A stretch of DNA of 34,274 bases from IMG/VR virus record IMGVR_UViG_2740892426_000003. The stretch is one strand, 5' to 3'. Shown here one piece after another: positions 1 through 33,758 of the stretch. The translations under genes were made by a program, and so were the position numbers. Numbering within the stretch: position 1 is the first letter of the stretch; every line of letters begins with the position of its first letter. This stretch comes from a virus. Lineage: Duplodnaviria; Heunggongvirae; Uroviricota; Caudoviricetes. The notes below the pieces were generated by a model. The model had not been told where the DNA came from and did not search any database. It saw nothing but the letters and a program-made list of their open reading frames with translations.

Positions 1-1200
1 ATGCTGACCGATACCAAGCTGAAAAACCTCAAAGCGCGGGAAAAACTTTATAAAGTTGCAGACCGTGATGGGCTGTATGTAACCGTATCTCCCAAGGGAT
101 TGGTGACGTTTCGCTATGACTATCGAATCAATGGTCGTCGTGAAACGTTAACGATTGGTCGCTATGGTGACGGTATTTCTCTGGCGCAGGCGCGCGAAAA
201 ATTAGTGGAAGCTAAAAAACGCGTAAATGCAGGAATATCGCCCGCTGGAGAGAAGCGTGACGGTAAAACAAAGCGAAAAGAAGAAAAGACACTCCACGAT
301 TTTACCGTCAGCTACATGAAACACACCCGGCTGGCGGACAGCACAAGGGCGATGAAGCAAAGCATTATCGACAGAGACATCACCCCAGTATGGGGGCGCA
401 AGCTGCTGTCAGAGATAACCCCCTCTCTCCTACGTGAGTATTGCGATAAGATAAAAGCGCGTGGTGCGCCAGCGACGGCGATTCAGGTTCGCAATATCGT
501 TAGTGCGGTATTTAAGTTCGCCGCGCTTCACGGCGACTATTACCCCAATCCTGCCGAAGAGGTTTTACCGGCTTCAATTGCGACATTCGAAGCGCGCGAC
601 AGGGCGCTCAAGCCAGAGGAGATAGGCTGGTTTTTCAATCAGCTTGAACAAACGGGTACATTACCCACCATCAAGCTGGCCATTAAATTGGTTTTATTAA
701 CGATGGTGCGTAAAAGTGAACTGCTGAACGCGCCGTGGGGTGAGGTTAATTTTAATGCCTGCCTTTGGACGATTGACGCCAGCCGGATGAAGGGATCACG
801 GGATCATAATGTTTATCTGTCCCGGCAGGCACAGGACATTCTGATTGCCCTGAAAATGTGCGCAGGAAGCAGTGATTGGGTTTTGCCTTCATGCAATCAG
901 TCGTCGCATAAGACCATGTCGGCGGCGACCTTAAACCGGGTCATTAATCTTACGGTTAAGCAGGCGCAGGAACGGGGGATCAGGCTGGCGTCGTTTTCCG
1001 TTCACGATATGCGCCGAACGGCCTCGACGTTATTGCATGAGGCGGGGTTTAATTCCGACTGGATAGAAAAATGCCTCGCGCACGAGGAAAGAAGCGTCAG
1101 AGCCGTTTATAACAAAGCGGAATACGCAGAGCAGCGCCGTGATATGTTGCAGCAGTGGGCGGATATGGTTGATGGGTGGATCAAGCAATACCGCCCGTAA
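1..1200 (+). CDS. int: P4-type tyrosine integrase (site-specific recombinase)
   Basis: 399-aa ORF beginning at window position 1. N-terminus (TDTKLKNLK...DGLYVTVSPKG...) is typical of P4-family integrases; C-terminal catalytic region has HDMRRT (H-x-x-R) and a downstream Tyr (RAVYNKAEY). Family assignment from recalled sequence patterns. Confidence 0.9.
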   Translation: MLTDTKLKNLKAREKLYKVADRDGLYVTVSPKGLVTFRYDYRINGRRETLTIGRYGDGISLAQAREKLVEAKKRVNAGISPAGEKRDGKTKRKEEKTLHDFTVSYMKHTRLADSTRAMKQSIIDRDITPVWGRKLLSEITPSLLREYCDKIKARGAPATAIQVRNIVSAVFKFAALHGDYYPNPAEEVLPASIATFEARDRALKPEEIGWFFNQLEQTGTLPTIKLAIKLVLLTMVRKSELLNAPWGEVNFNACLWTIDASRMKGSRDHNVYLSRQAQDILIALKMCAGSSDWVLPSCNQSSHKTMSAATLNRVINLTVKQAQERGIRLASFSVHDMRRTASTLLHEAGFNSDWIEKCLAHEERSVRAVYNKAEYAEQRRDMLQQWADMVDGWIKQYRP

Positions 1201-1203
1201 GTA

Positions 1204-1470
1204 CTATGCGGGGATCTTGGTACCAGAGCGCTTTGGTGCTTTGGCCAGATTCTTCTGTACCGCACTATCAATATGGTAATGGTTACTTTCCTGCCGAGTC
1301 TTGAGCCAGCGTTCCACTTCCTCTTTGTCCCACGCGACGGCGCGCTTCGTTAGCGCAAAACGTTTGGGAAACAGGCCTTTTTGCTCCAACGCATAAATCG
1401 TACTTTCAGAGAGTGGCACCATCTGTAAAAGCACGTTTTTTCTAATGGCAATTTTCATTGTTTTCCCCAT
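1204..1470 (-). CDS. alpA: AlpA/Vis-family phage transcriptional regulator/excisionase-like protein
   Basis: 88-aa ORF convergent with int; core LSESTIYALEQKGLFPKR...VAWDKEEVERWL matches the AlpA HTH signature (STIYR...G.FP.P...G.R.V.W...EV..W). True start may be an internal Met (MKIAIRK). Confidence 0.75.
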   Translation of the reverse strand: MGKTMKIAIRKNVLLQMVPLSESTIYALEQKGLFPKRFALTKRAVAWDKEEVERWLKTRQESNHYHIDSAVQKNLAKAPKRSGTKIPA

Positions 1471-1819
1471 GCCGTTCGGCGTTCAGGTGTTGCCACTGCG
1501 CTGCAATCCGCTTCATCACCGCATTCCCCTCCGGGATCACCTCCTGCGGCTCTTTCATCAACATTATCCGCCCCCGGATAACGATCAGCGCCTGTTCCAG
1601 CAGGTCATAGTCCAGATAACAGAGGTCGGGAATATCCAATTGCCACACGTAGCCATTCCATGCAGAAAGCAGTACCTGCGCAGCCGCGCGTCCGCCGGTG
1701 GTTTCTGTGAGAGCAACGTCGACAAGGGTATTGACAGCAAGGCGGTATTCCTCTGGCGCTACGCAAAGTCTTTGTCGTTGGGTTTCTTGCGTTGCCAGAG
1801 CCTTAAATATTTCGTTCAT
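1442..1819 (-). CDS. hypothetical protein (between primase and alpA)
   Basis: 125-aa ORF co-oriented with primase and alpA and overlapping the alpA start; no recognisable motif. Confidence 0.5.
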   Translation of the reverse strand: MNEIFKALATQETQRQRLCVAPEEYRLAVNTLVDVALTETTGGRAAAQVLLSAWNGYVWQLDIPDLCYLDYDLLEQALIVIRGRIMLMKEPQEVIPEGNAVMKRIAAQWQHLNAERHGENNENCH

Positions 1820-1828
1820 AACATTTCC

Positions 1829-4483
1829 TTATCGTTGAAAAACCCAACACTTCACTGTCGCCGGGCGGCGCGATGCGGCTGGGTAACGGCGGTTAAATTC
1901 AGCGTTGATGCCGCTGTTAACCGTTCTGACTTCAATAAACTTGTGGGTACGGCTGGTTTTCAGTACCCGCTTTAAATCGCTGACTGGTGGGATCTGCTGG
2001 CGACGTTCGGTGGCCAGTTGAATAAAGTGGTTAAGGTTGACGGCGATAAGCTGTTCATCGCGCGAGTGGTTAAGCTGCGGTTCGTCGTCGCCATCGAGGA
2101 AGTCGAAAATATCCCAGAACTCCTGTACCAGAGGATGGTCGGCGCTGATAGCCTGCTGGCGTTCCAGACTGAGCTGGATAAACATTTCTCTGGTGGCCTG
2201 TAGCTGTTCCTCCGTGACCGGAATAACCAGCGCCAGCGCGTCGAGCAGCGCCATAAGCTGGGCGTGGTTTTTAATGATGCGGATATGGCGAATATCGGGG
2301 TGGGCGTGAAGCTGCTGCTCGTATAGCGGGATCTGCCGGTTGACGCACTCCAGCACGGCCTGTTCCGCCAGCGCTGCCTTCAGCATAAAGCCGGAAAGCA
2401 GCTCCACCGGCAGGCGTTCGAGCTGCTCGGCAGCGACCTTGGTCTGAGTATTCTGGCCGCTGCGGTCGGTGTACAGGTGAATAATACGTTCCAGCACCGG
2501 GTTAGAGGCGCTGACGTCGGCGTTTTGCGCAATTACAATCGCGCCCCGGAACGGCGGTTCATAGGTCTCGTTACCGCTGTTACGCAGACCGCGAGAACGT
2601 ACCGACCGCCCGTTGTAGGCGGTTTTCAGCTCTTCCCAATCAAAGCCGCGCTGTTTTGCACCCTCCTGATTACGGTCACCCTCGATCAGCACTACCGGCA
2701 TATTCGCCACCTGCGCAAAGTTGCGCGCGCGGGCGGCCAGCGTTGATTTAGACGGATCGAAACCTTCATAGTCGCGTCGACCCAACAGTTTCCAGAGGAA
2801 CTCTATCAGCGTGGTTTTACCGCTGCCGGGTTCGCCGACGATTTCCAGAAACGGAAAGCTCTTGTGCTTGTCGCGGATCTGTTCTGCAAACATCGTCCCA
2901 AACCAGAACGCCAGCGCCACAAAGCCCTTTGCGCCAAACGCCTGCCAGAGTAACTGGGGCCACTGGCTGTCCATCTGTTTTAAATTGTCGTTCAGCGTCA
3001 GGCTGACCGACTGGTTCAGGCTTTTAAGGCTGAGTTTGCCCATGTCGAAGAAGTCTTCTTCGTTGAGCGCGTACAGCCGACCATCGCGAACGGCCAGATC
3101 GTTGAACACGTAAGCGCGGTATTCTTTGCTATAGCCGATAAAATCGGTGGTCTGGACGGTTTTGATTTTGGGAAGTTGCTTGAGCAGCAGCTTATCTAAC
3201 TGCTGACTAGTGCCAGTAAAGATGCCGCCCTGTGCGATATGCAGCAGGCGCTTTTTGAATTCTGAGCCGCTGGAAAGTTGGGAGCCGGTGAAGGTGTTTT
3301 TTATCGGCGGCGTGTCGTCCGGGAAGTTAATGCGAAAGTAATACCAGCTTTCGTCGGTGATGGTGTTGGCCTGATAGTAGAGGGCGGTCGGGTAGCAGTT
3401 GGCGATCTCCACCACGGCGGACGACTCTTTCAGCGCCTTCTGTTTCAGCTCTTCTTCGCTCAGGTCGTCATTGGAGAATGAGATACTTTCATGCACCCGC
3501 ATATAGCGGTCAATATCCAGCTTGAACCAGAACAGGCGGCTGTCAAACTCGAAGTGGAACTCTTTACGCTCTGTCTGTTCGTGCATCAGCAGGGCTTTGG
3601 CGGCGGGAGAGGTGGCGATCAGCAGAGAGCCGTAGTAGCGGTATTTCTTCACTAGCTCTGGGTTAAGCCGGTCGCGTTGGTGCAAATCGTTCCAGTCCAG
3701 CTTGCTGCGGGAATGCGGCGTCTGTGCGGCGGCTGCGCTCCAGCCTTCGTCCCGGCTGCGCTTTACCCATCGCCGGGTATAGCTCATGCCCGCCTTGTCG
3801 TTATCCAGCGCCCATACCAGTAAAGGGCGCTTTTTATCCACGAACAGCGCGGCCAGTTGGTTTAACGCCTGCGCCGGATAGTTGTTGCAGGTCATCAGGG
3901 AAACGGCGGCGATGCCGTGGTGGTGCAGGGCGATAGCGTCAAAAATGCCCTCAACCAGCCAGATCTCCTGCTGCCCTTCCAGCTTCAGCGTTGGCAATTG
4001 CCACCATAGCCCGCTGTAAGCGCCGTGAAAATTGGCTTTGCGATCGCCGAAACGCTGCGGGCGGTCAACGATCCGCTCCCACCACACGCCGTCAGCCAGC
4101 GGGAAACGCACGGTGGCCGAGCCGATATCGCGCCGTGCGTCGTAGTAGTTCTCTTGAGCGTAACAGTCACGGATCAGCGAAAGATCAAAGCCGCGCATCT
4201 CGCGCAGGTAGGCATCGGCGGCGGCCTGTGGGTTTTCCGGGGTTGGGGGATATCTGTCTGACCAGCTTTCAAACAGTTCCGGGTACACCTCTTTGATATG
4301 GATTTCGGCATTGCATTTATTCAGACGACCGCAGCGCAGTACCCACGGGCTGATGGCGTTGGTGTATAGCTCCTTTTTCTGGCAGTCCGGGCAGACGCCC
4401 TGCCGCAGCCAGTCGCCCTGTTCTTTAAAGGAAAAGTCGGCCAGCAGTCGCCGCGTAATTTCCTGATGAAGTTGTGGTTGCAT
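1829..4483 (-). CDS. P4 alpha-like DNA primase-helicase (zinc-binding primase N-terminus, Toprim, D5/SF3-like NTPase)
   Basis: 884-aa ORF; N-terminal Cys cluster (CPDC...C..C), Toprim-like LVEGIFDAIALHHHG, Walker A GEPGSGKTT and Walker B-like VVLIEGD. Architecture as in satellite P4 alpha and PICI pri-rep proteins. Confidence 0.85.
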   Translation of the reverse strand: MQPQLHQEITRRLLADFSFKEQGDWLRQGVCPDCQKKELYTNAISPWVLRCGRLNKCNAEIHIKEVYPELFESWSDRYPPTPENPQAAADAYLREMRGFDLSLIRDCYAQENYYDARRDIGSATVRFPLADGVWWERIVDRPQRFGDRKANFHGAYSGLWWQLPTLKLEGQQEIWLVEGIFDAIALHHHGIAAVSLMTCNNYPAQALNQLAALFVDKKRPLLVWALDNDKAGMSYTRRWVKRSRDEGWSAAAAQTPHSRSKLDWNDLHQRDRLNPELVKKYRYYGSLLIATSPAAKALLMHEQTERKEFHFEFDSRLFWFKLDIDRYMRVHESISFSNDDLSEEELKQKALKESSAVVEIANCYPTALYYQANTITDESWYYFRINFPDDTPPIKNTFTGSQLSSGSEFKKRLLHIAQGGIFTGTSQQLDKLLLKQLPKIKTVQTTDFIGYSKEYRAYVFNDLAVRDGRLYALNEEDFFDMGKLSLKSLNQSVSLTLNDNLKQMDSQWPQLLWQAFGAKGFVALAFWFGTMFAEQIRDKHKSFPFLEIVGEPGSGKTTLIEFLWKLLGRRDYEGFDPSKSTLAARARNFAQVANMPVVLIEGDRNQEGAKQRGFDWEELKTAYNGRSVRSRGLRNSGNETYEPPFRGAIVIAQNADVSASNPVLERIIHLYTDRSGQNTQTKVAAEQLERLPVELLSGFMLKAALAEQAVLECVNRQIPLYEQQLHAHPDIRHIRIIKNHAQLMALLDALALVIPVTEEQLQATREMFIQLSLERQQAISADHPLVQEFWDIFDFLDGDDEPQLNHSRDEQLIAVNLNHFIQLATERRQQIPPVSDLKRVLKTSRTHKFIEVRTVNSGINAEFNRRYPAASRRPATVKCWVFQR

Positions 4484-4571
4484 TGCCAGTACCTTTATTC
4501 AGGTAATACTTACCCGTCGCACAGACACGTTGTTTATGCGTTGTGGTTGTGAGTCTTTTATTTACTGAGTG

Positions 4572-4802
4572 TTACGCGATTTTCTGCTTTTGCAGAAATT
4601 GCCCGCGTGTGGATAGCGGGATGTGTATCTTAGGATTCGGGCAACCGCTCGGTACCACTGTTCCCATCACGGTTTCCATTGCGATAAATGAAAACGAACA
4701 GTTAACGTTTTTGCACTGGTAATAGAGCTTACGTACCAGCGGTGACATATATTCGCTGCTGCGAATTATCGCCTTACCGTCGCAGTGTGGGCATTTCATC
4801 AT
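4572..4802 (-). CDS. ogr: Ogr/Delta-family zinc-finger late transcription activator
   Basis: MMKCPHCDGKAIIRSSEYMSPLVRKLYYQCKNVNCSFSF has the CxxC...CxxxxC zinc-finger of P2 Ogr. Start set at the ATG-ATG pair preceded by AAGGAGA; the ORF-track start at 4820 is probably an upstream overextension. Confidence 0.85.
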   Translation of the reverse strand: MMKCPHCDGKAIIRSSEYMSPLVRKLYYQCKNVNCSFSFIAMETVMGTVVPSGCPNPKIHIPLSTRGQFLQKQKIA

Positions 4803-4838
4803 GTCCTGTCTCCTTACCACTTTTAACTAACTGAAACA

Positions 4839-5045
4839 CTAACGCTTTTCGTTAACGGACTGACGAAATAGTGTGATGCCGTTCAAAAAAATGATTCTTG
4901 CCATGCTGGACATCGAACGGTTCTGATCCAGCGCTAATGCTTCCAGTTCCGCGATTTCAGCGGGGAGCAGGCGCATTGCCACCGGTTTGTTCGACATCAC
5001 CCCGCGAGGCGCTCTTGAGCGTAAGACGTTCTCATTTGTTTTCAT
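4839..5045 (-). CDS. small ribbon-helix-helix (CopG/Arc-like) DNA-binding protein, first gene of the leftward ogr-primase transcription unit
   Basis: 68-aa ORF 18 nt upstream of ogr. VAMRLLPAEIAELEALA...RSMSSMARIIF looks like an RHH beta-strand plus helices. Divergent from the HTH gene across an 80-bp control region. Start may be internal. Confidence 0.5.
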   Translation of the reverse strand: MKTNENVLRSRAPRGVMSNKPVAMRLLPAEIAELEALALDQNRSMSSMARIIFLNGITLFRQSVNEKR

Positions 5046-5125
5046 GGTGGTATATTGTGGTTATTAACATTACACAATCTATAATTCCCTCAATTGAGTG
5101 AATTGTCAATGGTAATTATATCCAA

Positions 5126-5461
5126 ATGAAAGAATTTGGCATCCGTTTGAAGGAAGAACGTATCCGACTTGGACTTGATCAAGACGGCTTTGGACAACTT
5201 GGGGGCGTGAAGAAAAACGCACAAAGCAACTATGAGAATGGGTTGCGCAAGCCGGACAGTGACTATCTTGCTGGCATAGCGGCAGCGGGAGTTGATGTTC
5301 TGTATGTTCTAACAGGCAACCGCACGCCTGTGGTTACGTTGTCCAGTAAAGAGAGTGTGTTGGTGGAAAACTATCGTTCTGCTACGCCAGAACACCAGTC
5401 CACCCTTGACACGGTTAGCGCTGCGCTTGCGCAACCGATGAATTGTCGAAAAGTACAATGA
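5126..5461 (+). CDS. XRE-family helix-turn-helix transcriptional regulator (possible prophage repressor)
   Basis: 111-aa ORF; N-terminal GIRLKEERIRLGLDQDGFGQLGGVKKNAQSNYENGLRKPDSDYLAGIAAAGVDVLYVLTG is a Cro/C1-type HTH. First gene of a three-gene plus-strand operon. Confidence 0.75.
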   Translation: MKEFGIRLKEERIRLGLDQDGFGQLGGVKKNAQSNYENGLRKPDSDYLAGIAAAGVDVLYVLTGNRTPVVTLSSKESVLVENYRSATPEHQSTLDTVSAALAQPMNCRKVQ

Positions 5462-5491: not shown

Positions 5492-6580
5492 ATGGCAAAT
5501 GTCGGCTTTTCTTTTGAGGGGGTGATGATTGAAAGAATTATTGCTCATCGAATCTTCCCAAGGTCTCCCGATAAGCAAATGGTTCCACCTAAGTTAAGTA
5601 ATCAGTTAATAACGTTAGAACAAGATGCTTTGGATGCACTACAGGTTCGTATAACAGAAGCCTTAGGTAATAAATCTCATGGCATTGAAATGTCTATCAC
5701 TGATACCGGTGATGATAGTTTTTTTGCACTGACAACGTCTGTACTACATGTTGAAGGCGAATCATTTATTAACGTATCTAAGCGATTGGCGCATAAGTTA
5801 ACAGAAGCTCAATATAGTGCGGGGAAGGTTTCCGGTGGTGTGTTAGTAATCATTACGGGAAAAATTGGTGAACAAGCCTGCCCATTCTTTGCTGTACTGC
5901 GTGCTGAAATGCAAAACGGATTTCGGACCAATGATACCCCAGAGAAAATAGCGATGGAGTATATTGCTGACTTATTACTTACACCAACTCAGCGGCTTTA
6001 TAAAATAGGAGTGTTGATTGAGTGTGAGTCAGGCCATGAATTGATTGATGGTCGTTGTGATACGCAATATTATCGTTCATTTTTATTTGATCACTTGATG
6101 ACATCGACGGAAACTAAAAATGCTGCGGGGTATTTTTACAGTGTTTTTCTTGGAATGGGGATCGAAAAATCCTCCAAGAAATTGACGCAGGATTTTTTTG
6201 AACATACTCGAAATTTCATTAATCAGGCTCCAGTTGATGAGGAAACTAAGTTTGATTTACACGAGTCATTACGTTCTGAACTGAGAAGTCAGAAAGCAAC
6301 TTTGAGTACCGCTTCGTTTGCTACGGAACATCTTCCTCAAGAATTACAGACGAGCTATCAGTCATTTATGGCTCAAAAAGGTTTTCCGCAGAATGCAGTG
6401 TCTAAAGATACTGATTATATTAAGAAAAAGCTTCGTCGTAGAAGTAAATTAGTGTTTACAAGCGATGTATGGATATCCATACCACCAGATCAAGTAAAAG
6501 AACTGGTACAGATTGAACAAACAGATGATGATGAGTCAACTACACTTAAAGTCAAAGGGCGGTTGAAAAGTCAAGAATGA
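5492..6580 (+). CDS. NA37/YejK (NdpA)-like nucleoid-associated-protein-family protein; candidate DNA-binding sensor or antitoxin component
   Basis: 362-aa ORF with RBS TAGGAG upstream. By-eye similarity to E. coli YejK recalled from memory: I..H.I near the N-terminus, a GG-hydrophobic stretch (SGGVLVIITG), FLGMG...DFF, and C-terminal F..KG...TL.VKG. Very AT-rich relative to flanking phage genes. Stop overlaps the next start (ATGA). Confidence 0.55.
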   Translation: MANVGFSFEGVMIERIIAHRIFPRSPDKQMVPPKLSNQLITLEQDALDALQVRITEALGNKSHGIEMSITDTGDDSFFALTTSVLHVEGESFINVSKRLAHKLTEAQYSAGKVSGGVLVIITGKIGEQACPFFAVLRAEMQNGFRTNDTPEKIAMEYIADLLLTPTQRLYKIGVLIECESGHELIDGRCDTQYYRSFLFDHLMTSTETKNAAGYFYSVFLGMGIEKSSKKLTQDFFEHTRNFINQAPVDEETKFDLHESLRSELRSQKATLSTASFATEHLPQELQTSYQSFMAQKGFPQNAVSKDTDYIKKKLRRRSKLVFTSDVWISIPPDQVKELVQIEQTDDDESTTLKVKGRLKSQE

Positions 6581-7578
6581 TGAGTATAGAGGATTTTAGA
6601 CGTTATCTGGTTGAAAACCATGCTGCTTATGAAGCATGGGGTAAACATATTGCGTCTGAAATCAATGCGGCTTTGATTGAACAACTTGGTGAAGGGGCCG
6701 CCCAGCTCTTCATCAAGGTACCACCCACTCCGAGAGTTAAAGGTATCGAGTCCGCATTAGGGAAGGTTGGTCGTAAAGGTTATAACAACCCTGTTCAGCA
6801 GATGACGGATCTCGTTGGCGTTCGTTTTGTCGTTTTACTTTCTGAAGATATTGAGACAATCTGTAAAATCATTCAGAATAATGAACAATGGATAGCTGTT
6901 GTTTCTAAAGATTATCAGGATGAAATAGAGGTAAACCCTAAACTATTTGATTATCAATCAAAGCATTTTGAAATAAGGCCAAAGATAAATAGCGTTATAT
7001 CGGGAGTTAATATTACAACTGATATGTGCTGTGAAGTACAAATTAGAACATTATTGCAGCATGCGTATGCAGAATTAGTTCATGATAGCGTTTATAAACC
7101 TGTTGGCCCCGTACCGAAAAAAGCGGAGCGCCAAATTGCGCGTAGTATGGCTTTGATGGAAACAACAGATGAATTATTTTGTAATACAATGCGGCTTTTA
7201 TGTGATACTAATAAACCAAGAAATGATTTTTTAAAGGAGTTAAAAGATTTTTATATAAATAAAATTGGGAGGCAGTATTTAAATCAGGAAGATAAAATAA
7301 ATTATTGTTTTTTAGATGAGTATAGGTCGTTTATACAAGAAGATCTTTTGACTAATCTAATCGACCTTCTTGATAAGAAAAAATATATATCATATAAAAT
7401 CCAACAAAGGGCTACTGCCAATCTTTTTTTTGCGCAGCCAGTGGTCATTTTTACTTACTGGCTGGCAATAAATGAAGACAGTAATAAATTACAGCAAGAA
7501 TGGCCGTTACCTGGATATTTGAACGAATTGAGAATGATTTTAAGTGATGTTGGTGTAAGTAGCGGTATTGGATATTAA
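6577..7578 (+). CDS. RelA/SpoT-homologue nucleotidyltransferase (small-alarmone-synthetase/toxSAS-like) with ~150-aa C-terminal extension
   Basis: 333-aa ORF. Synthetase-domain motifs are visible: PRVKGIESALGKVGRKG, TDLVGVRFVV, and CEVQIRTLLQHAYAE (the E-[IV]-Q-I-R-T...H...AE signature). C-terminal third is K/N-rich, AT-rich and unassigned. Translationally coupled to the upstream gene. Confidence 0.8.
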   Translation: MMSIEDFRRYLVENHAAYEAWGKHIASEINAALIEQLGEGAAQLFIKVPPTPRVKGIESALGKVGRKGYNNPVQQMTDLVGVRFVVLLSEDIETICKIIQNNEQWIAVVSKDYQDEIEVNPKLFDYQSKHFEIRPKINSVISGVNITTDMCCEVQIRTLLQHAYAELVHDSVYKPVGPVPKKAERQIARSMALMETTDELFCNTMRLLCDTNKPRNDFLKELKDFYINKIGRQYLNQEDKINYCFLDEYRSFIQEDLLTNLIDLLDKKKYISYKIQQRATANLFFAQPVVIFTYWLAINEDSNKLQQEWPLPGYLNELRMILSDVGVSSGIGY

Positions 7579-8681
7579 TCTTCCAGCCCCAACTCACACT
7601 CCACCGCCGTCCCATACCCACTGCTGTTATCCAACGTATGCACACACCGCGTAATCACCCACGCGGTGCCGTCAATCTCCGCCTTAAACCCCTTAACCTG
7701 CAGTGGTAATTCCGGGAACAAATCGGGCCGTCCACGCGCAAGATTCAGGCTGAACGTTGCCGCGCCGCGCTGTAATTGCTCCCACGCGCTTTTTGCCGCC
7801 CGGTAGGCGTTATTTTTGTTGGCATAGGTGTGGCGCAACACCTTGATATTTCCCTCTTCGCCTACCATCACGTTATCGGCGTTGAATGAGGCGTCTGATG
7901 GGGGAGATTCCGTTGGTTGCGTTTGCGGACGATTTTTCCGTGTCTTGCGCTTCACGTCAGTGGACTGCTTTTTAGCCTGCCGCGTATCCAGCCAGTAGGC
8001 CGTAACGCCGGTATAGGCTTCCCTGTCCGCGATGCTGAACCGGTGACTGTCGCCGTCCTCGCGGGTAATGGTTGCGACCGGCAGCGGCTTTCCGCTGGCG
8101 CTTTTACCGGAACCTGTCGGCATCAGTAACAGAGCATCATTTTTCACGCAGGCGATAGCGCCGTGCATTTGCGCCAGCCGGGTCAGGAAGGAGGCATCGG
8201 ATTCGTTAGTCTGGTCAACGTGCTCAATGGCGATCCCAGCCAGCTCGCCGCTGACGGTTGATTCCAGCTTATGGCGCGCCGCCACGGTTTGCACAATCGC
8301 GCCCAGCGTCACATCATGGTAGCTCTGTTCCCGTTTAACGTTCAGCGAATCGCGGAAATCGGCGCTGCGGGCGCGGAGGCTGAGTACGTCCGGTGCGCCG
8401 CTGTGCTCCAGTTCGTCCACGGTGAAGACATTCTGGTGCATCACGCCGTCACCCTTCCAGCCCAGAGAAACCGTTAGCTTTTCGCCCTTTGCCGGAAACG
8501 CCAGCAGGCCGTCGCTGTCGTCCAGTTCGAGCTGCAGTTCGTCGGCCTCAAAGCCCCGGTTGTCGGTGATACGCAGGCTGATTAAGCGGTTGTCCAGATT
8601 CCGCGTAATGTCCTTACCATTCAGCACCACGCTGTACTCCGGCTGCGGTTGGGCGTTTAAGAGTGCGTTTAACATCGTCAT
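7575..8681 (-). CDS. D: tail protein D (late control gene D, P2 gpD-like)
   Basis: 368-aa ORF at the 3' end of the E-T-U-D tail operon; gene order and length as in P2. Confidence 0.85.
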   Translation of the reverse strand: MTMLNALLNAQPQPEYSVVLNGKDITRNLDNRLISLRITDNRGFEADELQLELDDSDGLLAFPAKGEKLTVSLGWKGDGVMHQNVFTVDELEHSGAPDVLSLRARSADFRDSLNVKREQSYHDVTLGAIVQTVAARHKLESTVSGELAGIAIEHVDQTNESDASFLTRLAQMHGAIACVKNDALLLMPTGSGKSASGKPLPVATITREDGDSHRFSIADREAYTGVTAYWLDTRQAKKQSTDVKRKTRKNRPQTQPTESPPSDASFNADNVMVGEEGNIKVLRHTYANKNNAYRAAKSAWEQLQRGAATFSLNLARGRPDLFPELPLQVKGFKAEIDGTAWVITRCVHTLDNSSGYGTAVECELGLED

Positions 8682-9116: not shown

Positions 9117-11963
9117 TTAGTCGATATCGCGCAGGCTGCTGCGGGTTCTGGCGGCATTCTGCCGTTCGCGCTTGTCCAGTTCCTGCGCCACCAGTTTCGC
9201 CAGTTGTTGTTCATTCATGCCGGGAGCGGCGTGGATGTGAATAGTGACTGGCCCGCCGCTGGCTGCCGGTGCAGAAAGGGATGCTGGCGCGAGCGGGGCG
9301 CGATTATCCGGCAGGGCGGCGATAGGGGGCATGGCGACAGCGGCGGCGCTGAGCGTCAGCCCGGCACCGGCGGCGATTAACTGCTTCGAGAGTTGCCCTA
9401 CGCTGGCCAGCGCCGTTTGCGTGTTGTCCTCAATCCCGACCGCCAGCCCGTCCACGGTATAGCGGCCCATTTCGGCGAACACCCGCGACGGTGAATGAAT
9501 ACCGAGCTTGTCCTTAAACCAGTTGGAAATATTGCTGCCCAGATCCAGCACGCCCTGTTTAATCGCTTCCCATTTGGCAAAGATCCCCTGTTTCAGCCCT
9601 TCCATGATATTGCCGCCGATCTCGGTAAAGCGGGTGGACAGGTTACTGAAACTGTTCAGAACGTTATCCCAGACTGTGGTAAACACCGTGGACAGGTTCC
9701 AGTTGGTGAAAAAAGCAATGATGGCATTCAGGGCAGTGCTGACGGTGGTTTTAATTCTCTCCCAGATACCGGTGGCGGTAGTGGTAATGCCCGTCCATAT
9801 TTGTCCCAGAAATGCCACCACGCTGTTCCACGCCTCAACGGTCGTCGCTTTGATAGTATCCCAGTGCTGGTAAATCAGACCGGGCAGCGTCCAGTTCAGC
9901 AGGATATTCACCAGTCCGTCCCAGCAGCCGAAGAGAAACGTTTTAATCCCTTCCCAGACGGCGCTGGTTGTGGCTTTTACGCTGTTCCACGCATCGCTGC
10001 ATACCTGCTTAAAACTATTCCAGAGCGCGGCGAACTTCGGCCCCAGCCAGTCCCAGTTACTCCAGATCCAGATGGCGGCACCGGCGATCAGCGCAATCAC
10101 CACCAGAATCGGGTTAGCCATCATTGCGCGACCCAGCCAAATTACCGCTTTTCCCGCGCCTTTAAAGGCATTCGCCAGCAGCCCCAGCGCGCTGCTGCCC
10201 TTAATACCGAGCACCGACAGGCTGAGTTTTAGCGCCGCCATCGGGCCGAGGATACCGGCAAGCGTCAGGGATATGCCTCCGAGCGCCACGGCGAACGCGC
10301 CGATCGCCATGCCGATTTTCACCAGCGTGGCGGTTAGCTGCGGGTTGGCCTTTACCCACTGGCCGAGACGTTCCGCCATTCGTCCCAGCCATTCGGTAAG
10401 CTGTTTTAAATCCGGTGCAACGGTTTCACCAATGGCGGCCAGCGAGTTGGTAAAGGTACCGGAGGCCGCTTCCCATAAGTTTTTCAGGGTGCCTAGCTGT
10501 TCATTAACTCGCTGCTGCAGCGACGCCTGCGCGCTCATTTTCCCCTGAACGTCGTTATATCCGGCTGAGCCTTTCTCAATCAACAGGGAGATAACCTGCA
10601 GCGTCTCGGCATCGTCGCCGTAGAGGGATTTGATAATGCCGAGGCGGGTTTCCGTATTCAGGTCTTTCAGCTTATCCAGTTGCTTAAACATGTTATCCAG
10701 CCCGCCAAATTCCCCTTTGCCGTCGCTGAAACTAAGCTGAATATTCTGGCCCATTTTTGCCAGTTCATTGTTTACCTCTTTAATGTTGTCGGTATCCATG
10801 GATTTCTGGAATACCTTGCGGAAGGCGTTCCCGGCTGCGTCGCCGCGCATCCCGGCCTGATCGGCCATTACCAGCAACGGAGCCAGTGACTTAGCGCCCT
10901 CCAGCCCCTTGACTTTGATGATATCCATCGCGGCGGACATTTTGGCGAAGCCGTTGAGCATATTGTTGGCGTCCACGCCGAGGTAGTAGCTTTTCTGGAT
11001 CACGTCCATCAGCGACATCATGTCTTTTTCTGATGTACGGGTCGCATCCTGCATTTTGGCGGCAAACTCGGCAGCGGCTTCGGAAGGCATCTGGAGCTGC
11101 ACACCCAGATAAGCGGTCGCCTCACCCAGTCCGCCGAGAATGGACTGCGCCGACATCCCCTGCCTGCGTAACATAGTCATCATGTTCTGGAAGTCGGCAG
11201 TGGTGCCGGGGAGCCTGTCGCCCAGCGTCACGGCCAACTGGTTGATGGCTTCAAATTCGGGCAGGACGCCACTGGCGCCCATCATGGAAACCTTGAGCTG
11301 CGTTGAGGCGTTTTCCAGTTCGGCATAGGCTTTTACCGGAACCGCCAGTGTCATTCCGGTCGCGGTGCCGGTTGCCATCATGCCAGCGCCAAAGCCCGCC
11401 AGCTTGTTGCGGGCATCGATAGTTCCCGCGTAGCTGGATTTGGCGGAGTTCATCTTTTTCTGCTGCTGATTTAGGCGATTGAGTAACCGTTCTTGTTCTT
11501 TTAATTTTGTGTTATAGCGTTCAGTCTCCGTTTTTATTCTGACGGTAGCCTTTTCCCCCGCCTGCGTAGAAATACCCAGTCGATAGAGTTCCGCCCGTAA
11601 TTTGCCCATCTGAGTTATTTCTTGCTGTTGCTTATGTTCGAGCTGGCTGACTGTTCGCCACTGTCGTTCCAGCGCCTTTGTCTGCTTTTGTGTGGGGTTA
11701 TCCATTGCAGACATTTCGCGCGTCATCATCTGGGCTTTGAGACGAGCTTGATCCAGCTCTGTACCAAGCTGTTTAGTTGAACTCTTTAAACTATTAAATG
11801 TGGCTAATTGACCACTGGCCTGATTCAGTGCTTTGAGCTGGTTCCGTGTTTCTTTTAACGCACGGGCGGTTTCACCGCTGCCCTGCGTGACGGCTTTTAG
11901 CGGGCGGGTGATTTTATCTACGGCGCTGAGTAGTACCTGTAAACGAAGGTTTTGTGTGCTCAT
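9117..11963 (-). CDS. T: tail tape measure protein (P2 gpT-like)
   Basis: 948-aa ORF immediately downstream of E/E', with coiled-coil N-terminal half and hydrophobic central segments; start overlaps the E' stop (ATGA). Confidence 0.9.
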   Translation of the reverse strand: MSTQNLRLQVLLSAVDKITRPLKAVTQGSGETARALKETRNQLKALNQASGQLATFNSLKSSTKQLGTELDQARLKAQMMTREMSAMDNPTQKQTKALERQWRTVSQLEHKQQQEITQMGKLRAELYRLGISTQAGEKATVRIKTETERYNTKLKEQERLLNRLNQQQKKMNSAKSSYAGTIDARNKLAGFGAGMMATGTATGMTLAVPVKAYAELENASTQLKVSMMGASGVLPEFEAINQLAVTLGDRLPGTTADFQNMMTMLRRQGMSAQSILGGLGEATAYLGVQLQMPSEAAAEFAAKMQDATRTSEKDMMSLMDVIQKSYYLGVDANNMLNGFAKMSAAMDIIKVKGLEGAKSLAPLLVMADQAGMRGDAAGNAFRKVFQKSMDTDNIKEVNNELAKMGQNIQLSFSDGKGEFGGLDNMFKQLDKLKDLNTETRLGIIKSLYGDDAETLQVISLLIEKGSAGYNDVQGKMSAQASLQQRVNEQLGTLKNLWEAASGTFTNSLAAIGETVAPDLKQLTEWLGRMAERLGQWVKANPQLTATLVKIGMAIGAFAVALGGISLTLAGILGPMAALKLSLSVLGIKGSSALGLLANAFKGAGKAVIWLGRAMMANPILVVIALIAGAAIWIWSNWDWLGPKFAALWNSFKQVCSDAWNSVKATTSAVWEGIKTFLFGCWDGLVNILLNWTLPGLIYQHWDTIKATTVEAWNSVVAFLGQIWTGITTTATGIWERIKTTVSTALNAIIAFFTNWNLSTVFTTVWDNVLNSFSNLSTRFTEIGGNIMEGLKQGIFAKWEAIKQGVLDLGSNISNWFKDKLGIHSPSRVFAEMGRYTVDGLAVGIEDNTQTALASVGQLSKQLIAAGAGLTLSAAAVAMPPIAALPDNRAPLAPASLSAPAASGGPVTIHIHAAPGMNEQQLAKLVAQELDKRERQNAARTRSSLRDID

Positions 11964-14169: not shown

Positions 14170-14192
14170 CTTGTAACCACTGGCACTACAAG
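14170..14192 (-). promoter_or_regulatory. late-promoter activator site (CTTGTA-N11-TACAAG dyad) upstream of FI
   Basis: Dyad centred about 80 bp upstream of the FI start, just downstream of dam. Confidence 0.6.
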
Positions 14193-14204: not shown

Positions 14205-14963
14205 TTAATTCAGGATAATCAATTCTGATGTGGTGCTGGCTGGCTTTCCACCTACAGTATAGCGAATCCCTACCGTTGAAAATGTCAGGCCGTGGAAGAT
14301 ATCGCGCATTTCCGGGATGTCATTAACCGAGATAATCATCCGGCCCTGCATGGTGCGCGCCAGCTCTGCCATACGCTGGTACTGCTCAAGGCCAAATGGT
14401 ACGCCGTAGCCTTCGGTTTTCCAGTATGGCGGGTCGCAGTAGAACAGGGTATGCGGGCGGTCATAGCGGCGAATACAGTCGACCCAGTCCAGATTTTCAA
14501 TACAGACGCGCGCCAGCCGCAGATGGGCGGCGGATAAATCCTCTTCCATACGCAGCAGGTTCAGGCGCGGCGGTGAGGTGGTGGCGGTACCGAACGTGCG
14601 GCTTTCCACCTTACCGCCGAATGCCAGCTTTTGCAGATAGTAGAAGCGCGCCGCGCGCTGGATGTCGGTCAGCGTTTCTTCCGGGGTGATCTGGAGCCAG
14701 CGGTACATTTCGCGACTGACCAGCGACCATTTAAACTGGCGGACAAACTCTTCTAAATGGTGCTGGAGTACGCGGTAGAGGTTGGTAACGTCACCATTGA
14801 TATCGTTCAGCACCTCGGCCTGAGCGGGCTGTTTCATAAAGAACAACGCCGCCGCCCCGCAGAACGGTTCAACGTAGCAGCGGTGTTTGGGAAACAGCGG
14901 CAGAATGTGTTTTGCCAGCCTGCGCTTACCGCCGATCCACGGAATAATGGGTAACGTATTCAT
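14205..14963 (-). CDS. dam: Dam-family N6-adenine DNA methyltransferase (orphan, inside the late tail-fibre operon)
   Basis: 252-aa ORF with SAM-binding FCGAAALF and catalytic DPPY (YCDPPYW). Sits between G and FI, the position of Z/fun in P2. Confidence 0.85.
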   Translation of the reverse strand: MNTLPIIPWIGGKRRLAKHILPLFPKHRCYVEPFCGAAALFFMKQPAQAEVLNDINGDVTNLYRVLQHHLEEFVRQFKWSLVSREMYRWLQITPEETLTDIQRAARFYYLQKLAFGGKVESRTFGTATTSPPRLNLLRMEEDLSAAHLRLARVCIENLDWVDCIRRYDRPHTLFYCDPPYWKTEGYGVPFGLEQYQRMAELARTMQGRMIISVNDIPEMRDIFHGLTFSTVGIRYTVGGKPASTTSELIILN

Positions 14964-15427: not shown

Positions 15428-16122
15428 CCTGACGAGTAGTCGTAATCCATAACCGCCTGTACCTCCGTCAATGCTTCAACGGTGGCAATATGCTGCTGGG
15501 CAGCGGCGAACAGGCGCATATCGTGCGCCATTGTTTCGGTTTCAAACCGGGCGGCGATTTCGTTGGTCAGTTCAATCAGGCCGTGATTTTTGGTCTGCCA
15601 CATTAAGCCCGTCGGTATTTGTTTTGCCATGCCCATTTTGGTGAGCGAGAGCTGCTGGATGCGGCTGTTAGCGTCGCTATGGAAATGGTGATCGTCGATG
15701 ATGATGTAGTCAGCGGTGATCCGATCGCGATACTGCTTTATTTCCGCCACCTTTGCCTGTCGGGCTTTTTCGATATCGGGCCGCCAGCGTTTGCCGTCCC
15801 AACGGACAAAGGTGTTATCAGGCTTCAGCAGAGTGACGTTATCCGGCAATGGCCCCAGATGATGAAGCTGTACCTCACTGCCCGCATCGGTATCAAACGC
15901 GGTTTTACCGCGATGATCTTCTACCGCAAGCCATGTTTCTCCGTTGAATGTCAGGGCAAAGCCGCTCTGGCATTCGGGCGGTTCGATAGTGGTACAGCAT
16001 TCCGGTAAGCCGGTGTTGGGGGCGATATAGGTGTCGCTGACGCCGATAAATTCCTGAGTATCTGCCGCGTAGTTAAAGATGAGCAGGGTTTGCGGTTCGT
16101 CGGAAAATGCGAATGTGCTCAT
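15415..16122 (-). CDS. G: tail fibre assembly protein (P2 gpG-like)
   Basis: 235-aa ORF immediately downstream of the tail fibre gene. Confidence 0.8.
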
Positions 16123-18002
16123 GCCAGCCTCACGATATAGTTGAAAGCGATATTTTTAACGGTGTTTTCGGCGTTCCCGGCGGCGTTCACCGTAATAGTG
16201 TGGCTGTGGGAACCCAAGGCGATAGTGTGGTTATGCGCGCCGATAGTCAGCGAATGAGTATGAGCGCCGATGGCTACTGTGTGAGTATGGACACCGTCTG
16301 TACTGGTTCTGAATTTGTAGTTATCCCAGTCTGTGTCTGCAGACCCCTGATTATTACGGGTACTGTCGAAGTAACCGTGACGCCCACCGCTGGCTTCACC
16401 CCATCCGCTGTCGTGGTTGTGAGCACCGGCTGACGCTGTTGATTTTGTCCCGTAGTCAAACGCGCTGGTATTTTTAGTACCCAAATCAGTGGAACTGGCG
16501 GTTTTAGTGCCTAAATCCGTGTTAGCGGCGCTGGCGGTGTGACCATGAGATTTAACGCCATCCTGTTCCTGAGACAGTATCGTGCGTCCGCTGGCGGGCT
16601 TCCCCTTGATTGTCCAGCCGCGCATATCCGGGATTACACCGGAGGGGTAAGCGATTGCCAGTTTAGGGTAGGCGGTTTTATTGAAGGACTGACCGACCAT
16701 CAGTGCATAGCCGCTAGGGATGGCATCGGATGGCCATGGAATGGGAGCGCCTGCTGGGTAGAGTTCTTCTGGTAAGTTTCTGCTATTAAAATCTCGCCGC
16801 CAGCCGGGAGAGTATTGTGCTCCGTGATCGATATAGATAAATTGCGCGTTGGCTATGCCTTTGGTCGATGTAGAGGGGGTAGTAATGCGGATTGTTTTTG
16901 CCGACTCAATACCCATGACCTCAATGACAGCGCCAGCCAGTTGAATATCGCCACAGCCTGTATCAGAAATGACTTTATTCGAGGCATAACTCCATGAACC
17001 TTTACACATCCAATAGGGGGTACTGAAAGCTCCCTGAACACTCAGCCAGCTTAGAAATTCAGTCGTAGTCCATGAGGCATCATTTCCACCAATAGACAGA
17101 CTGCCGCTGAAGGCACGGCAGCGGCTATTGGCATTATCCATTACTATTTTGACAGCCTTCGGTGTTGCGGCCATCGCCTCACTAACGTTATTGGTTTCGC
17201 TGTTAAGCTGGATTATCCCTTTGCGCATGGTGGTCGCATCCAGTGCGGTATATTTTCCATTAGCCAGATCGTAGGCCGCTTTCACGGCTTTAGGCGTGGC
17301 GGCCAGCGTTTCGCTGATACTGTCGATGGAGCTACTAAGCTGGACAATCCCTTTACGTGAGGTGGTGGCATCCAGTGCGGTATATTTTCCATTAGCCAGA
17401 TCGTAGGCTGCTTTCACGGCTTTGGGCGTGGCGGCCAGTGTTTCGCTGATGCTGTTGGTCGCACTGCTTAATTGAGTAAAACCTTTGGCAGTTAACGTGG
17501 CGTCAGGATGGTTACGGGACTGCGCGTGGCGAGTCAGGCTTTCATCCACATACTGCCTCGTTGCCAACACTACGGCAGGGTCGATTTTCAGTTCCACGTT
17601 TTCCGTATGGGAGACAATCAACACCATGCGGATAATCTGCGTGCGACCCGAACCTTCGATTAGCTGCGGCTTGTAGGTTGGCGGGCAGTTGCCGACGGCA
17701 ATCAGCCGGTCGTGCTCGTCGTACAGGCCAATTTCTCTGATCCACCATCCGCCTACGTCCTCCGGCAGCACCTGTTCGGCAATAATCTGGTTGGAGTTGT
17801 TAGGGTCAATACTGAGCGTATTCAGCGGTGCACGTCGACGTTCGTTGACTAGCCGGGTTTGACCGGTCTCCGGCGTTGGCAGGTTACCGTTTCCGTCGCC
17901 CACGGCCATTTGCGTCAGATGAAGAGGTGAACCCTGTGTGGTGGCGGTCGCCAGCGCGGATTCGCCAGTAGTGGTTAATAGCGTGAAATAGGTAGCGCTC
18001 AT
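16119..18002 (-). CDS. H: tail fibre protein (P2 gpH-like) with internal tandem repeats and His-x-His-rich C-terminal tip
   Basis: 627-aa ORF; three tandem ~39-aa repeats ([30 protein letters not shown]) and a C-terminal run of HxH motifs ([31 protein letters not shown]). Confidence 0.85.
17127..17486 (-). repeat. three tandem ~117-bp repeats inside the tail fibre gene
   Basis: Near-identical nucleotide repeats visible directly in the sequence (catccagtgcggtatattttccattagccagatcgtaggc...ggcgtggcggccag...gtttcgctgat twice, plus a diverged third copy). Coordinates approximate. Confidence 0.7.
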
Positions 18003-20507: not shown

Positions 20508-20530
20508 CTTGTAGGATAATGGGCTACAAG
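20508..20530 (-). promoter_or_regulatory. late-promoter activator site (CTTGTA-N11-TACAAG dyad) upstream of V
   Basis: Perfect hexamer inverted repeat with 11-bp spacer; same element found upstream of FI, X and in the O/P divergent region. Confidence 0.6.
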
Positions 20531-24777: not shown

Positions 24778-24866
24778 AGCATTAGCCTCTTTAATGTTGT
24801 GGTCAGAGGCCCGTCGGTGTTGGTAGCACCTGCGGGCTTCGTTCGTTTAAGGGTTGCAAAACATCA

Positions 24867-33743: not shown

Positions 33744-33758
33744 GACTCCTCCTGATCA

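Follow-up and report, generated by a model that had tools for sequence, protein, structure and literature searches.

An Escherichia coli prophage whose integrase, probable excisionase and primase-helicase are most probably the usual early genes of a large and already known P2-like branch

When a complete set of P2-type virion genes lies beside a P4-type integrase, an AlpA homologue, a primase-helicase and an ogr gene, it has to be asked whether a satellite has been joined to its helper or whether all these genes belong to one phage. The window analysed here, a whole stretch of 34,274 nucleotides, presents this combination. The original prediction, whose listed genes are all present where it placed them (Table 1), saw a P4/PICI-like integration-replication module attached to a P2-like virion module, either as one helper-independent phage with a satellite-type replicon or as a tandem of satellite and helper. 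The window most probably holds just one temperate prophage, P2-like (Peduoviridae) and to all appearances intact, of the phiCTX/RSY1/Smp131 lineage, in which a primase-helicase replaces P2 gpA and gpB (probability of roughly 85%). The integration and replication genes are indeed not those of P2. The integrase, excisionase and primase-helicase of this E. coli prophage are the normal early genes of a large and known P2-like branch: ever since phiCTX, P2-like phages have been known in which a primase, Ogr and a tyrosine integrase stand in place of A, B, C and cox; they are very common, and the combination of Ogr, primase and tyrosine integrase has already been published (PMC3931495, PMC6389784). 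Protein similarity and synteny are the grounds for assigning it to this lineage, because there is no close nucleotide relative among sequenced phage isolates. Megablast of both window halves against these isolates gave less than 5% coverage, and the sole high-identity match (TL-2011b, 95.7%) is confined to the host gene yfgI at the right end.

Table 1. Features of the window, with the basis of each assignment
Feature	Coordinates	Strand	Basis
int, tyrosine integrase	1-1200	+	Pfam Arm-DNA-bind_3 + Phage_int_M + Phage_integrase; guaA specificity
alpA, AlpA-family	1204-1470	-	PF05930, E 8e-13; PHROG 'excisionase and transcriptional regulator'
DUF7673 protein, role unassigned	1442-1819	-	PF24720, E 2e-17; phrog_6694; just 3' of primase
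Primase-helicase, 884 aa	1829-4483	-	Toprim/P-loop; phrog_1139 'DNA primase', 1263 bits
ogr, Ogr-type zinc-finger late activator	4572-4820	-	PF04606, E 1e-19; second early-operon gene
Arc-like ribbon-helix-helix protein, 68 aa	4839-5045	-	phrog_3431 'Arc-like repressor', E 4e-24, residues 1-66
Switch region	5046-5125		Facing promoter-like sites and dyads as candidate operators; consensus matches only
HTH (XRE/cI-like) protein	5126-5461	+	HTH_3/HTH_31; PHROG repressor families; divergent from early operon
Low-GC cargo, NA37-like and RelA/SpoT-domain proteins	5492-7578	+	PF04245, PF04607; GC 38-43%; downstream of repressor gene
P2-type late region D through Q, lysis genes, three further cargo insertions	7575-32263		Protein identity, P2 order; RefSeq annotation of 98.7% relative
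Late-promoter dyad upstream of FI	14171-14191	-	TTGTA-N11-TACAA, 1 mismatch
Late-promoter dyad upstream of V	20509-20529	-	2 mismatches
Late-promoter dyad upstream of X and lysis operon	24220-24240	-	1 mismatch
Late-promoter dyad between divergent O and P	29420-29440		Perfect match
cos-like site downstream of Q	32380-32400		CCCCGCCACGCC at 32386-32397, unique in window
AT-rich iteron cluster AAAGGTAAC(C), candidate origin	32584-32865		4 forward and 2 reverse copies
Int arm-type sites GACGGTAAA, two copies	33017-33037	+	Motif match
attR core GAGTGGGAATGATT, prophage right end	33100-33113	+	Three-way alignment: empty K-12 site, L725 junctions
Host genes yfgI and yfgH, outside prophage	33204-34274	-	99% identical to K-12

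The element, one helper-independent phage, is about 33.3 kb long, is bounded by a single pair of attachment sites and carries a complete P2-type set of genes for head, tail, lysis and terminase. Q, P, O, N, M, L, X, R, S, V, W, J, I, H, FI, FII, E, T, U and D are all present in the P2 order, with 37-65% protein identity to their counterparts in P2, phiCTX and RSY1. Against P2 itself the values are 37-61% for Q, P, O, N, M and L and 39-62% for the collinear tail genes, and the virion module is equally distant from P2 and from phiCTX/RSY1. The claim that the structural and lysis genes of P2 stand in canonical order holds for the virion genes, but not for lysis: endolysin and holins belong to the phiCTX/RSY1 type instead of P2 K/Y, with a muramidase-type endolysin (54-55%) shared with both phages. 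Cargo slots occupy the positions of P2 orf30, of Z/fun and downstream of L. A PADLOC search of the cargo genes returned only a weak PDC-S33 match, in the 5492-7578 block, and methyltransferase models.

Late transcription and packaging signals appear to be in place as well. The late dyads amount to four sites against 0.89 expected by chance, and equivalent positions in phiCTX and RSY1 bear the same TGT-N13-ACA dyads. In P2, the late-promoter dyads have N12 spacing; a search of the window for TGT-N12-ACA gave matches that were neither enriched nor intergenic, the dyads here having N13 spacing. P2 has late promoters before the same operons (P/O, V and FI), the one before X being additional here. 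Ogr would switch on the four late operons through GCTTGTA-N11-TACAAGC dyads, judging from the motifs. At the cos-like site, CCCCGCCACGCC aligns with the cos of phiCTX at 12 of 12 positions and with that of P2 at 11 of 12, and in packaging the genome would be cut at this phiCTX/P2-type cos near 32386.

E. coli L725 and CEC15 match the window at 98.7% identity, and in both the element lies between guaA and yfgI. An 8.7-kb query found copies in 4 of 5426 complete E. coli genomes, 95-99% identical where aligned; two span the full query, while the other two span 71-75% of it and differ in the low-GC block. The lineage is rare in E. coli and lacks a closely related sequenced isolate. This rarity would be in keeping with a cryptic, defective member of the lineage that has lost phage production. 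Such a loss is nevertheless improbable: every essential P2-type gene is full-length relative to its homologues, attR, cos, the late dyads and the switch region are all intact, and a primase of 82% identity is encoded on a phage-sized metagenomic viral contig.

Comparison with the empty site of K-12 places a 14-bp core at both junctions of the prophage and locates the insertion at the 3' end of E. coli guaA, by a tyrosine integrase that its sequence identifies as epsilon15-type. The attL core, expected to the left of position 1, lies about 224-237 bp beyond it, as read in the 98.7%-identical L725. The tRNA that was expected with it is absent: a tRNA attachment site was rejected in favour of guaA, the window scan having revealed no tRNA and none being annotated left of int in L725. 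P2-type early genes might also have been situated just outside the window, but none is found there, the neighbours being guaA at the left and yfgI and yfgH at the right end. Nor does the window contain a second att site, between ogr and D or elsewhere: the copy at 33100-33113 is the only exact one, and core matches with three mismatches number 4 against 2.08 expected by chance.

Int has the same Pfam architecture as P4 Int, that of the P4 family. It is, however, 61% identical to the integrase of epsilon15, as compared to 30% for P4 and 26% for RSY1, and AlpA is 51% identical to epsilon15 gp33 (Xis), 39% to P4 ORF88 and 38% to RSY1 ORF48. A P4-type origin of both proteins, as first supposed, does not agree with these values, both having been rated 'twice as similar' to the podovirus epsilon15 as to P4. 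The attachment core is the one experimentally verified for phage vB_EcoP_ZX5 (PMC9782041). Salmonella phage epsilon15 and E. coli phage vB_EcoP_ZX5 (Uetakevirus) share with the prophage this core at the guaA 3' end and the GTGACGGTA arm-type sites, two of which lie within int. In the epsilon15 record, GTGACGGTAT is annotated as integrase-binding sites around the same core, and GACGGTAAA motifs of the window are found in the 5' part of int, at 259 (+) and 301 (-), as annotated for epsilon15. The likeness ends there, since both are podoviruses with unrelated virion and replication genes and have the integration module alone in common with the prophage. By analogy, AlpA, convergent with int and last in the early operon, is probably an excisionase and regulator, and would act with Int in excision.

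The early region has a compact organization. Five tightly spaced minus-strand genes fit one transcription unit; this operon structure, like the promoters, operators, Ogr binding and AlpA role put forward here, is proposed on the basis of consensus matches and analogy. The divergent HTH protein is probably the immunity repressor, and 43 of 80 related loci have a homologue of it at this position and in this orientation. The first gene of the operon encodes the Arc-like protein, with a weak RHH_5 match and homologues at the same position in six of the related loci; it may be an analogue of Cox or Apl. Between the two, a promoter-like site on the minus strand (TTGACA-17-AATTAT, 5109-5081) faces one on the plus strand (TTCTCA-16-TG-TATATT, 5029-5056), with palindromes at 5055-5079 and 5074-5113, while, taken overall, the promoter and terminator scan was not above chance. 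In lysogeny, the HTH repressor would shut off the facing early promoter; derepression would lead to expression of one compact operon for the Arc-like regulator, Ogr, the primase-helicase, the DUF7673 protein and AlpA. The absence of P2 C, cox, B and A is borne out as far as homologues are concerned (tblastn against the window, best E = 0.19), but the putative functional stand-ins for C and cox, at 5126-5461 and 4839-5045 respectively, had not been counted. The Ogr of the prophage has one unit only (82 aa), as in P2 Ogr, and is nearer to RSY1 ORF40 (47%) and P2 Ogr (42%) than to P4 Delta (32%).

The primase-helicase consists of a Zn-ribbon and DnaG-type Toprim primase, followed by a Cch/SaPIbov1-Rep-like (MCM-like AAA+) helicase and a C-terminal helical/beta domain. 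Full-length identity is 49% to the primase of phiCTX, 58% to that of RSY1 and 52% to that of Escherichia phage ev239; all three phages are Peduoviridae. Its description as 'alpha-like' is accurate for the N-terminal primase domain and for no other part of the protein. P4 alpha matches phrog_1139 over residues 31-344 (E 8e-23; hhalign E 9e-9), and the kinship is detectable only in this Zn-ribbon/Toprim part; tblastn gives no match of P4 alpha to the primase, and the latter does not match phrog_2249, the best PHROG of P4 alpha. The helicase part has a fold in common with SaPI Rep and SCCmec Cch at a sequence identity of about 12%, including the MCM-like AAA+ fold, the N-terminal beta domain and the C-terminal DNA-binding domain. 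This family is visible by fold comparison and not by sequence search, and single-sequence and profile searches against the PDB returned only weak DnaG Toprim matches. The satellite-type replicon can thus be retained at the level of mechanism, by virtue of the shared helicase fold, but not as a statement of descent from a satellite. Differences from SaPIbov1 Rep and SCCmec Cch are the fusion of the helicase to a DnaG-type primase, the proteobacterial host, the location of the gene on a complete phage, and iterons that are not immediately downstream of the gene. It could be imagined, at slightly less than even odds, that the phiCTX-type replicase is an uncharacterised fusion of a DnaG-type primase and a Cch/SaPI-Rep-like self-loading initiator helicase, with AAAGGTAA(C/T) iterons as its origin. 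If so, a large P2-like branch shares replication machinery with staphylococcal satellites and SCCmec, which hints at a common pool from which the replicons of islands and satellites and those of helper-type phages are drawn.

The family is represented by at least 553 relatives among species-representative genomes, and 1962 protein clusters were matched. Among 80 genomic loci with primase homologues, P2-type virion genes lie within 10 kb in 65 and ogr in 61, whereas psu, sid, alpha and gpA occur in none. The joint arrangement of early block and P2-like virion part recurs in 48 of the 80, and across beta- and gammaproteobacteria the block keeps its order and its linkage to gpD. Edwardsiella ictaluri has the closest relative (90%), which also adjoins guaA and whose genes, starting with FI in the tail region and ending with int, follow an identical order across the 22.7 kb examined. 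RSY1 (Ralstonia, Arsyunavirus) and phiCTX (Pseudomonas, Citexvirus) share with the prophage the trait of their lineage, a full-length phrog_1139 primase-helicase in an early operon between repressor and integrase and near gpD, as well as the Ogr-type activator inside that operon, the AAAGGTAA iteron clusters and the layout of D, cargo, repressor, early operon, integrase, attP, iterons/cos and Q. In RSY1 the order is D, cargo, repressor and early operon (Ogr ... primase, AlpA), and of the two phages it is the one noted to have AlpA followed by a convergent Arm-DNA-bind_3 integrase, as here; the phiCTX integrase has Arm-DNA-bind_2, in contrast to the epsilon15/guaA type of the prophage. The prophage further differs from both in its host, E. 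coli, in a much shorter early operon of five genes and in its cargo, and similarity to them at the nucleotide level does not go beyond about 1 kb.

These relationships also bear on the proposed satellite. [quoted passage not shown] The prophage shares with P4 the Int architecture, AlpA, the Ogr/Delta zinc finger, the homologous N-terminal Zn-ribbon and Toprim primase domain, and the use of one polypeptide for priming, unwinding and, presumably, origin recognition. Conversely, the P4 proteins alpha, psu, sid and epsilon had no tblastn match in the window below E = 0.19, with values above 0.2 for psu, sid and epsilon. The ORFs scanned included no member of the Psu or Sid families, and the helicase is Cch/MCM-like and lacks three domains of alpha, D5_N, DUF5906 and Pox_D5. 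Its 33 kb with all virion genes are equally unlike a P4 satellite or PICI (about 10-15 kb, no virion genes, helper-dependent). A recent recombination, in which a P4-like or PICI satellite gave an int-alpA-primase-delta block to a P2 helper and replaced C-cox-B-A, could account for the P4-like features of Int, AlpA and Ogr/Delta, for the primase domain homologous to that of alpha and for the helicase fold common to SaPI Rep. It is very improbable. The nearest relatives of primase and ogr are in the complete phages phiCTX, RSY1 and ev239, and those of int and alpA in epsilon15, also a complete phage; the psu, sid, epsilon and alpha families are missing; and the conserved block order and gpD linkage, like the phage-wide distribution of the primase family, speak against a recent transfer. 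As the virion genes are equally far from P2 and from phiCTX/RSY1, no recent P2 parent or P2 x satellite recombination is visible. The supposed P4/PICI module is the early region of phiCTX/RSY1/Smp131-type P2-like phages, whose standard replicase this primase family is, and int, alpA, primase and ogr/delta together are insufficient for calling a satellite. A tandem of two elements, with a satellite or island (1 to about 7.5 kb) beside a P2-like prophage lacking its own early region, might be read from the low-GC block that separates the early region from gpD, but it can be discarded: there is one exact att core with inexact matches at chance level, the block is a variable cargo slot, filled with other genes downstream of the repressor in Edwardsiella (L012) and otherwise in two E. 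coli strains, the right part alone would have no integrase, repressor, replicase or Ogr although its four late promoters need an Ogr-type activator, and the joint arrangement is found in 48 of 80 loci.

With regard to replication of the single prophage, six of the seven copies of AAAGGTAAC in the window fall within 32584-32865, where GC is 31.5%. The same motif clusters in phiCTX (its 'R3 repeats'), RSY1, Smp131 and an IMG/VR sequence (L163), a conservation that spans Pseudomonas, Ralstonia and Stenotrophomonas phages and the E. coli prophage; no such cluster occurs in P2, P4, epsilon15 or ev239. The cluster is a candidate origin, an assignment that is not secure because ev239 has a 52%-identical primase yet no cluster. 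It may instead serve packaging or an IHF-related role, being near cos in four of five phages; a function of the repeats as cos accessory sites is weakened by their location 10 kb from Q in L163 and their absence from P2. A role as Int arm sites was rejected, given that epsilon15, with the same Int type, core and GTGACGGTA sites, is devoid of them and that phiCTX and RSY1 keep them despite different integrases. Direct repeats within or beside the primase gene offered nothing convincing as an origin, and a literature search for a described phiCTX origin returned nothing relevant. The primase-helicase would probably bind the AAAGGTAAC iterons, melt the AT-rich origin, load itself and prime theta-type replication. 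The combination of replicase fold and conserved iterons provides a testable origin for this phage group.

The prophage and P2 (Peduovirus) have the whole virion gene set in order and Ogr in common, and the traits of the Peduoviridae are present: the Q-L block and contractile-tail genes in P2 order, an Ogr-type activator with predicted dyad sites at late promoters, and a predicted P2-type cos beside Q. The traits of Peduovirus sensu stricto, gpA/gpB and a C/Cox switch, are not, nor is a P2-type Int. The gene ogr, located after D in P2, is part of the early operon here, and the gpA nickase, as annotated in the P2 record, is replaced by the primase-helicase; replication is presumably of the theta type rather than by origin nicking as in P2. 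Schemes for the detection of P2-like prophages that demand gpA or a P2-type integrase would call this element incomplete (compare PMC13586616). Finally, the DUF7673 protein is homologous to the ORF that follows the primase gene in phiCTX (orf38, E 2e-7) and in a Halomonas phage (E 3e-13).

Six-frame ORFs, combined with Pfam and PHROG scans, give the layout of the left end (see table). It is followed, up to position 32263, by the full P2 virion set in the order of P2 (D U T E FII FI ... H I J W V ... S R lysB ... X ... L M N O / P Q). The virion proteins are 37-65% identical to those of P2, and the distance to phiCTX and RSY1 is about equal. With tblastn, neither A, B, C and cox of P2 nor alpha, psu, sid and epsilon of P4 match the window below E = 0.19; the original prediction was thus correct on the gene content and on the missing P2 early genes. 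It had also placed all P2 structural and lysis genes in canonical order, which holds for the virion set; the endolysin and holins are of the phiCTX/RSY1 type and not P2 K/Y. In function, C and cox are presumably replaced by a repressor and a small RHH protein. The stop codons of int and alpA are convergent and 3 bp apart (1200-1204), with no terminator-like hairpin between them, so that transcription of the early operon would run antisense into int.

Features of the window and repeat clusters of related phages (genes from ORFs with Pfam and PHROG scans)
Feature	Position	Strand	Remark
int	1-1200	+
alpA	1204-1470	-
DUF7673 gene	1442-1819	-
primase-helicase	1829-4483	-	884-aa Toprim/P-loop protein
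ogr	4572-4820	-
Arc-like gene	4839-5045	-	68 aa
HTH repressor-like gene	5126-5461	+	divergent
two low-GC genes	5492-7578	+	NA37-like; RelA/SpoT-domain
gpD	7575-8681	-
late-promoter dyads GCTTGTA-N11-TACAAGC			four; upstream of P/O, X, V, FI, nowhere else in window
predicted cos site CCCCGCCACGCC	32386-32397		unique in window; aligns with phiCTX and P2 cos
iteron cluster AAAGGTAAC(C), candidate origin	32584-32865	four forward, two reverse	six copies; 31.5% GC; between cos and attR
att core (attR)	33100-33113		single exact copy in window
AAAGGTAA(C/T) cluster, phiCTX (L001)	35143-35384	both	annotated 'R3 repeats'
AAAGGTAA(C/T) cluster, RSY1 (L005)	14-295	both
AAAGGTAA(C/T) cluster, Smp131 (L008)	14656-14853	both
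AAAGGTAA(C/T) cluster, IMG/VR contig L163	17586-17800	both	4.9 kb downstream of primase, 10 kb from Q

The early block is the usual early region of a large, already described branch of the P2-like phages, on the strength of primase identity, module order, distribution and published precedents. Over its whole length, the primase-helicase is 58% identical to that of RSY1, 52% to that of Escherichia phage ESSI2_ev239 and 49% to that of phiCTX, all Peduoviridae, and 34-45% to the primases of Smp131 and phi3; P4 gives no tblastn match for it. The modules of RSY1 are ordered as in the window: D, cargo, repressor, an early operon (Ogr-type regulator, primase, AlpA) and a convergent Arm-DNA-bind_3 integrase. 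In phiCTX the order is D, repressor region, early operon with primase, int, attP, cos and Q. Relatives number at least 553 in a scan of species-representative genomes and come from beta- and gammaproteobacteria. Of the best 80 loci, 65 possess one or more P2-type virion genes within 10 kb. An ogr gene occurs in 61 of them and a co-oriented gpD upstream in 48; psu, sid, alpha and gpA were found in none. Among the candidates scored, 1962 protein-database clusters match at E <= 1e-10, and many IMG/VR contigs of phage size (32-38 kb) carry the gene. The combination of Ogr, a DNA primase and a tyrosine integrase has been described for the P2-like phages Smp131 and RsoM1USA (PMC3931495, PMC6389784). 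The nearest relative (90%), in Edwardsiella ictaluri, has the order of the window from FI (tail) to int within the 22.7 kb compared and adjoins guaA. Few E. coli strains have the prophage (4 of 5426 complete genomes), and nucleotide searches with both window halves found no close relative among sequenced phage isolates.

[quoted passage not shown] Three generic components of this set are present in the element; the satellite-specific ones are all absent and an own virion is encoded. On this definition it belongs to neither the P4-like nor the PICI family. The Pfam domains of P4 alpha are Zn_Ribbon_Prim, Toprim_3, D5_N, DUF5906 and Pox_D5, while only Toprim and a weakly matching P-loop are recognised in the window protein and its relatives. 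An eight-member family profile matches alpha in the Toprim region only (hhalign probability 95.7%, E 9e-9); in reverse, alpha, whose own family is phrog_2249, matches phrog_1139, the family of the window protein, over alpha residues 31-344 only (E 8e-23). Since both matches are confined to this part, the N-terminal primase domain is homologous to that of alpha and the remainder not detectably so; the designation 'alpha-like' survives for that domain alone. The original reading is upheld in part: the element is a single phage, independent of a helper, whose early genes are not those of P2. A satellite-derived mosaic is rejected in view of the primase identities to RSY1, ev239 and phiCTX (49-58%) and the lack of psu, sid and alpha in those 80 relatives.

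The predicted direct repeat was found as a 14-bp core, GAGTGGGAATGATT, which includes the guaA stop codon; it was derived by aligning the empty guaA-yfgI site of K-12, both junctions in E. coli L725 and the right junction of the window. The chromosomes of E. coli L725 and CEC15 contain DNA with 98.7% identity to the window. In the former, int begins 224 bp past guaA, and behind the portal gene come yfgI and yfgH, the final two ORFs of the window. Because the window begins exactly at the int ATG, it just misses attL, the P' arm sites and the end of guaA, which in L725 are about 224-237 bp further left. Instead of the tRNA expected on the left, the 3' end of guaA was found; no tRNA was detected in the window or is annotated left of int in L725. 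Three further matches to the core, with 3 mismatches each, do not exceed chance expectation. Neither of the two findings that were to refute the original prediction was made: the element has no internal att site, and beyond the window there are no early genes of P2. With one exact core, no tRNA and the guaA/yfgI junctions, the element is a single unit of about 33.3 kb with attL just left of position 1. A tandem satellite-helper arrangement is excluded by the single core between guaA on the left and yfgI/yfgH on the right. Among phage records, a single high-identity match came up: Escherichia phage TL-2011b (95.7%), over host yfgI (DUF5384; window 33091-33600). This record seems to contain host DNA from the flank, or yfgI itself, beside the guaA site.

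Int has a P4-family architecture, with 30% identity to P4 Int versus 61% to that of podovirus epsilon15; likewise, AlpA is 39% identical to P4 ORF88 versus 51% to epsilon15 gp33. For the epsilon15-like phage vB_EcoP_ZX5, an attP/attB core at the guaA 3' end was verified experimentally (PMC9782041), and it is identical to the window core. In the record of epsilon15, GTGACGGTAT sites for the integrase are marked around the same core and within int. These are matched by GACGGTAAA, at 33017, 33029, 259 and 301 and at the L725 left junction. The two inverted copies within the 5' part of int (259-267, 301-309), where epsilon15 has annotated sites at the corresponding place, suggest either autoregulation or a P' arm that reaches further.

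Between the Arc-like gene and the repressor gene (5046-5125, 80 bp) there are facing promoter-like sites and palindromes, as consensus matches only. For the late-promoter dyads, 4 sites with up to 2 mismatches compare with 0.89 expected; 4 sites are reached in 1 of 100 shuffles. TGT-N13-ACA dyads occur at equivalent positions in phiCTX and RSY1, and this seemingly ties the Ogr of the early operon and the late genes into one regulatory circuit.

An AlphaFold model of the primase-helicase with 43 homologues (mean pLDDT 86.5), Foldseek matches to Cch (E 5e-15) and SaPIbov1 Rep (E 4e-12), and the conserved motifs CPxC...C...C and Walker A together define a Zn-ribbon and Toprim primase joined in one polypeptide to a self-loading, MCM-like initiator helicase. 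In Reps of the Cch/SaPI type, a C-terminal winged helix binds 6-12 iterons flanking an AT-rich centre (PMC9371898). Outside its cluster, AAAGGTAAC(C) has one copy in the window, with one mismatch. The AAAGGTAA(C/T) iterons are conserved in P2-like phages of four host genera with a common primase-helicase, and a long inverted repeat, TCGGRAAAAGGTAA..., bounds the cluster in the window and in RSY1. No such cluster was found in P2, P4, epsilon15 or ev239. The repeats track the primase and not the integrase type, which differs among these phages, and are uncoupled from cos at least once; with moderate confidence, we infer that they are the replication origin. The main arguments against this are that ev239 lacks the cluster and that it usually lies near cos. 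The element could then be a self-contained theta-type replicon, working like P4 alpha or SaPI Pri+Rep; by family, it still belongs to the phage lineage. Only the Cch/SaPI-Rep-like fold of a common phage replicase and the conserved iterons are of wider note.

Directly downstream of the repressor gene, the cargo genes (GC 38-43%) encode an NA37 nucleoid-associated-like protein of 362 aa and a protein of 333 aa, in which a RelA/SpoT synthetase domain at the N-terminus is followed by an uncharacterised half of ~160 aa. PADLOC gives a weak PDC-S33 match only, and phage matches are remote (27-35% identity); the pair could serve as a system for defence or as a toxin system, expressed in the lysogen. 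In the Edwardsiella locus this slot holds different genes. A D12-class (Dam-like) adenine methyltransferase (14205-14963) separates the tail-fibre assembly genes from FI, in the P2 Z/fun slot. Between S and V, the position of P2 orf30, there is a HicA/HicB toxin-antitoxin pair (20570-21165), replaced in L725 by an 'abortive phage resistance protein'. The variable region between X and L (24261-26209) contains small ORFs and a 223-aa ORF (25173-25844, GC ~40%) with no Pfam or PADLOC match and no counterpart in L725; that strain has a RelE/ParE toxin plus an HTH gene at this place. T (tape measure, 9117-11963) and H (tail fibre, 16119-18002) are 57% and 64% identical to those of L725, versus 90-100% for almost all other proteins, which points to local replacement of both within otherwise near-identical prophages.
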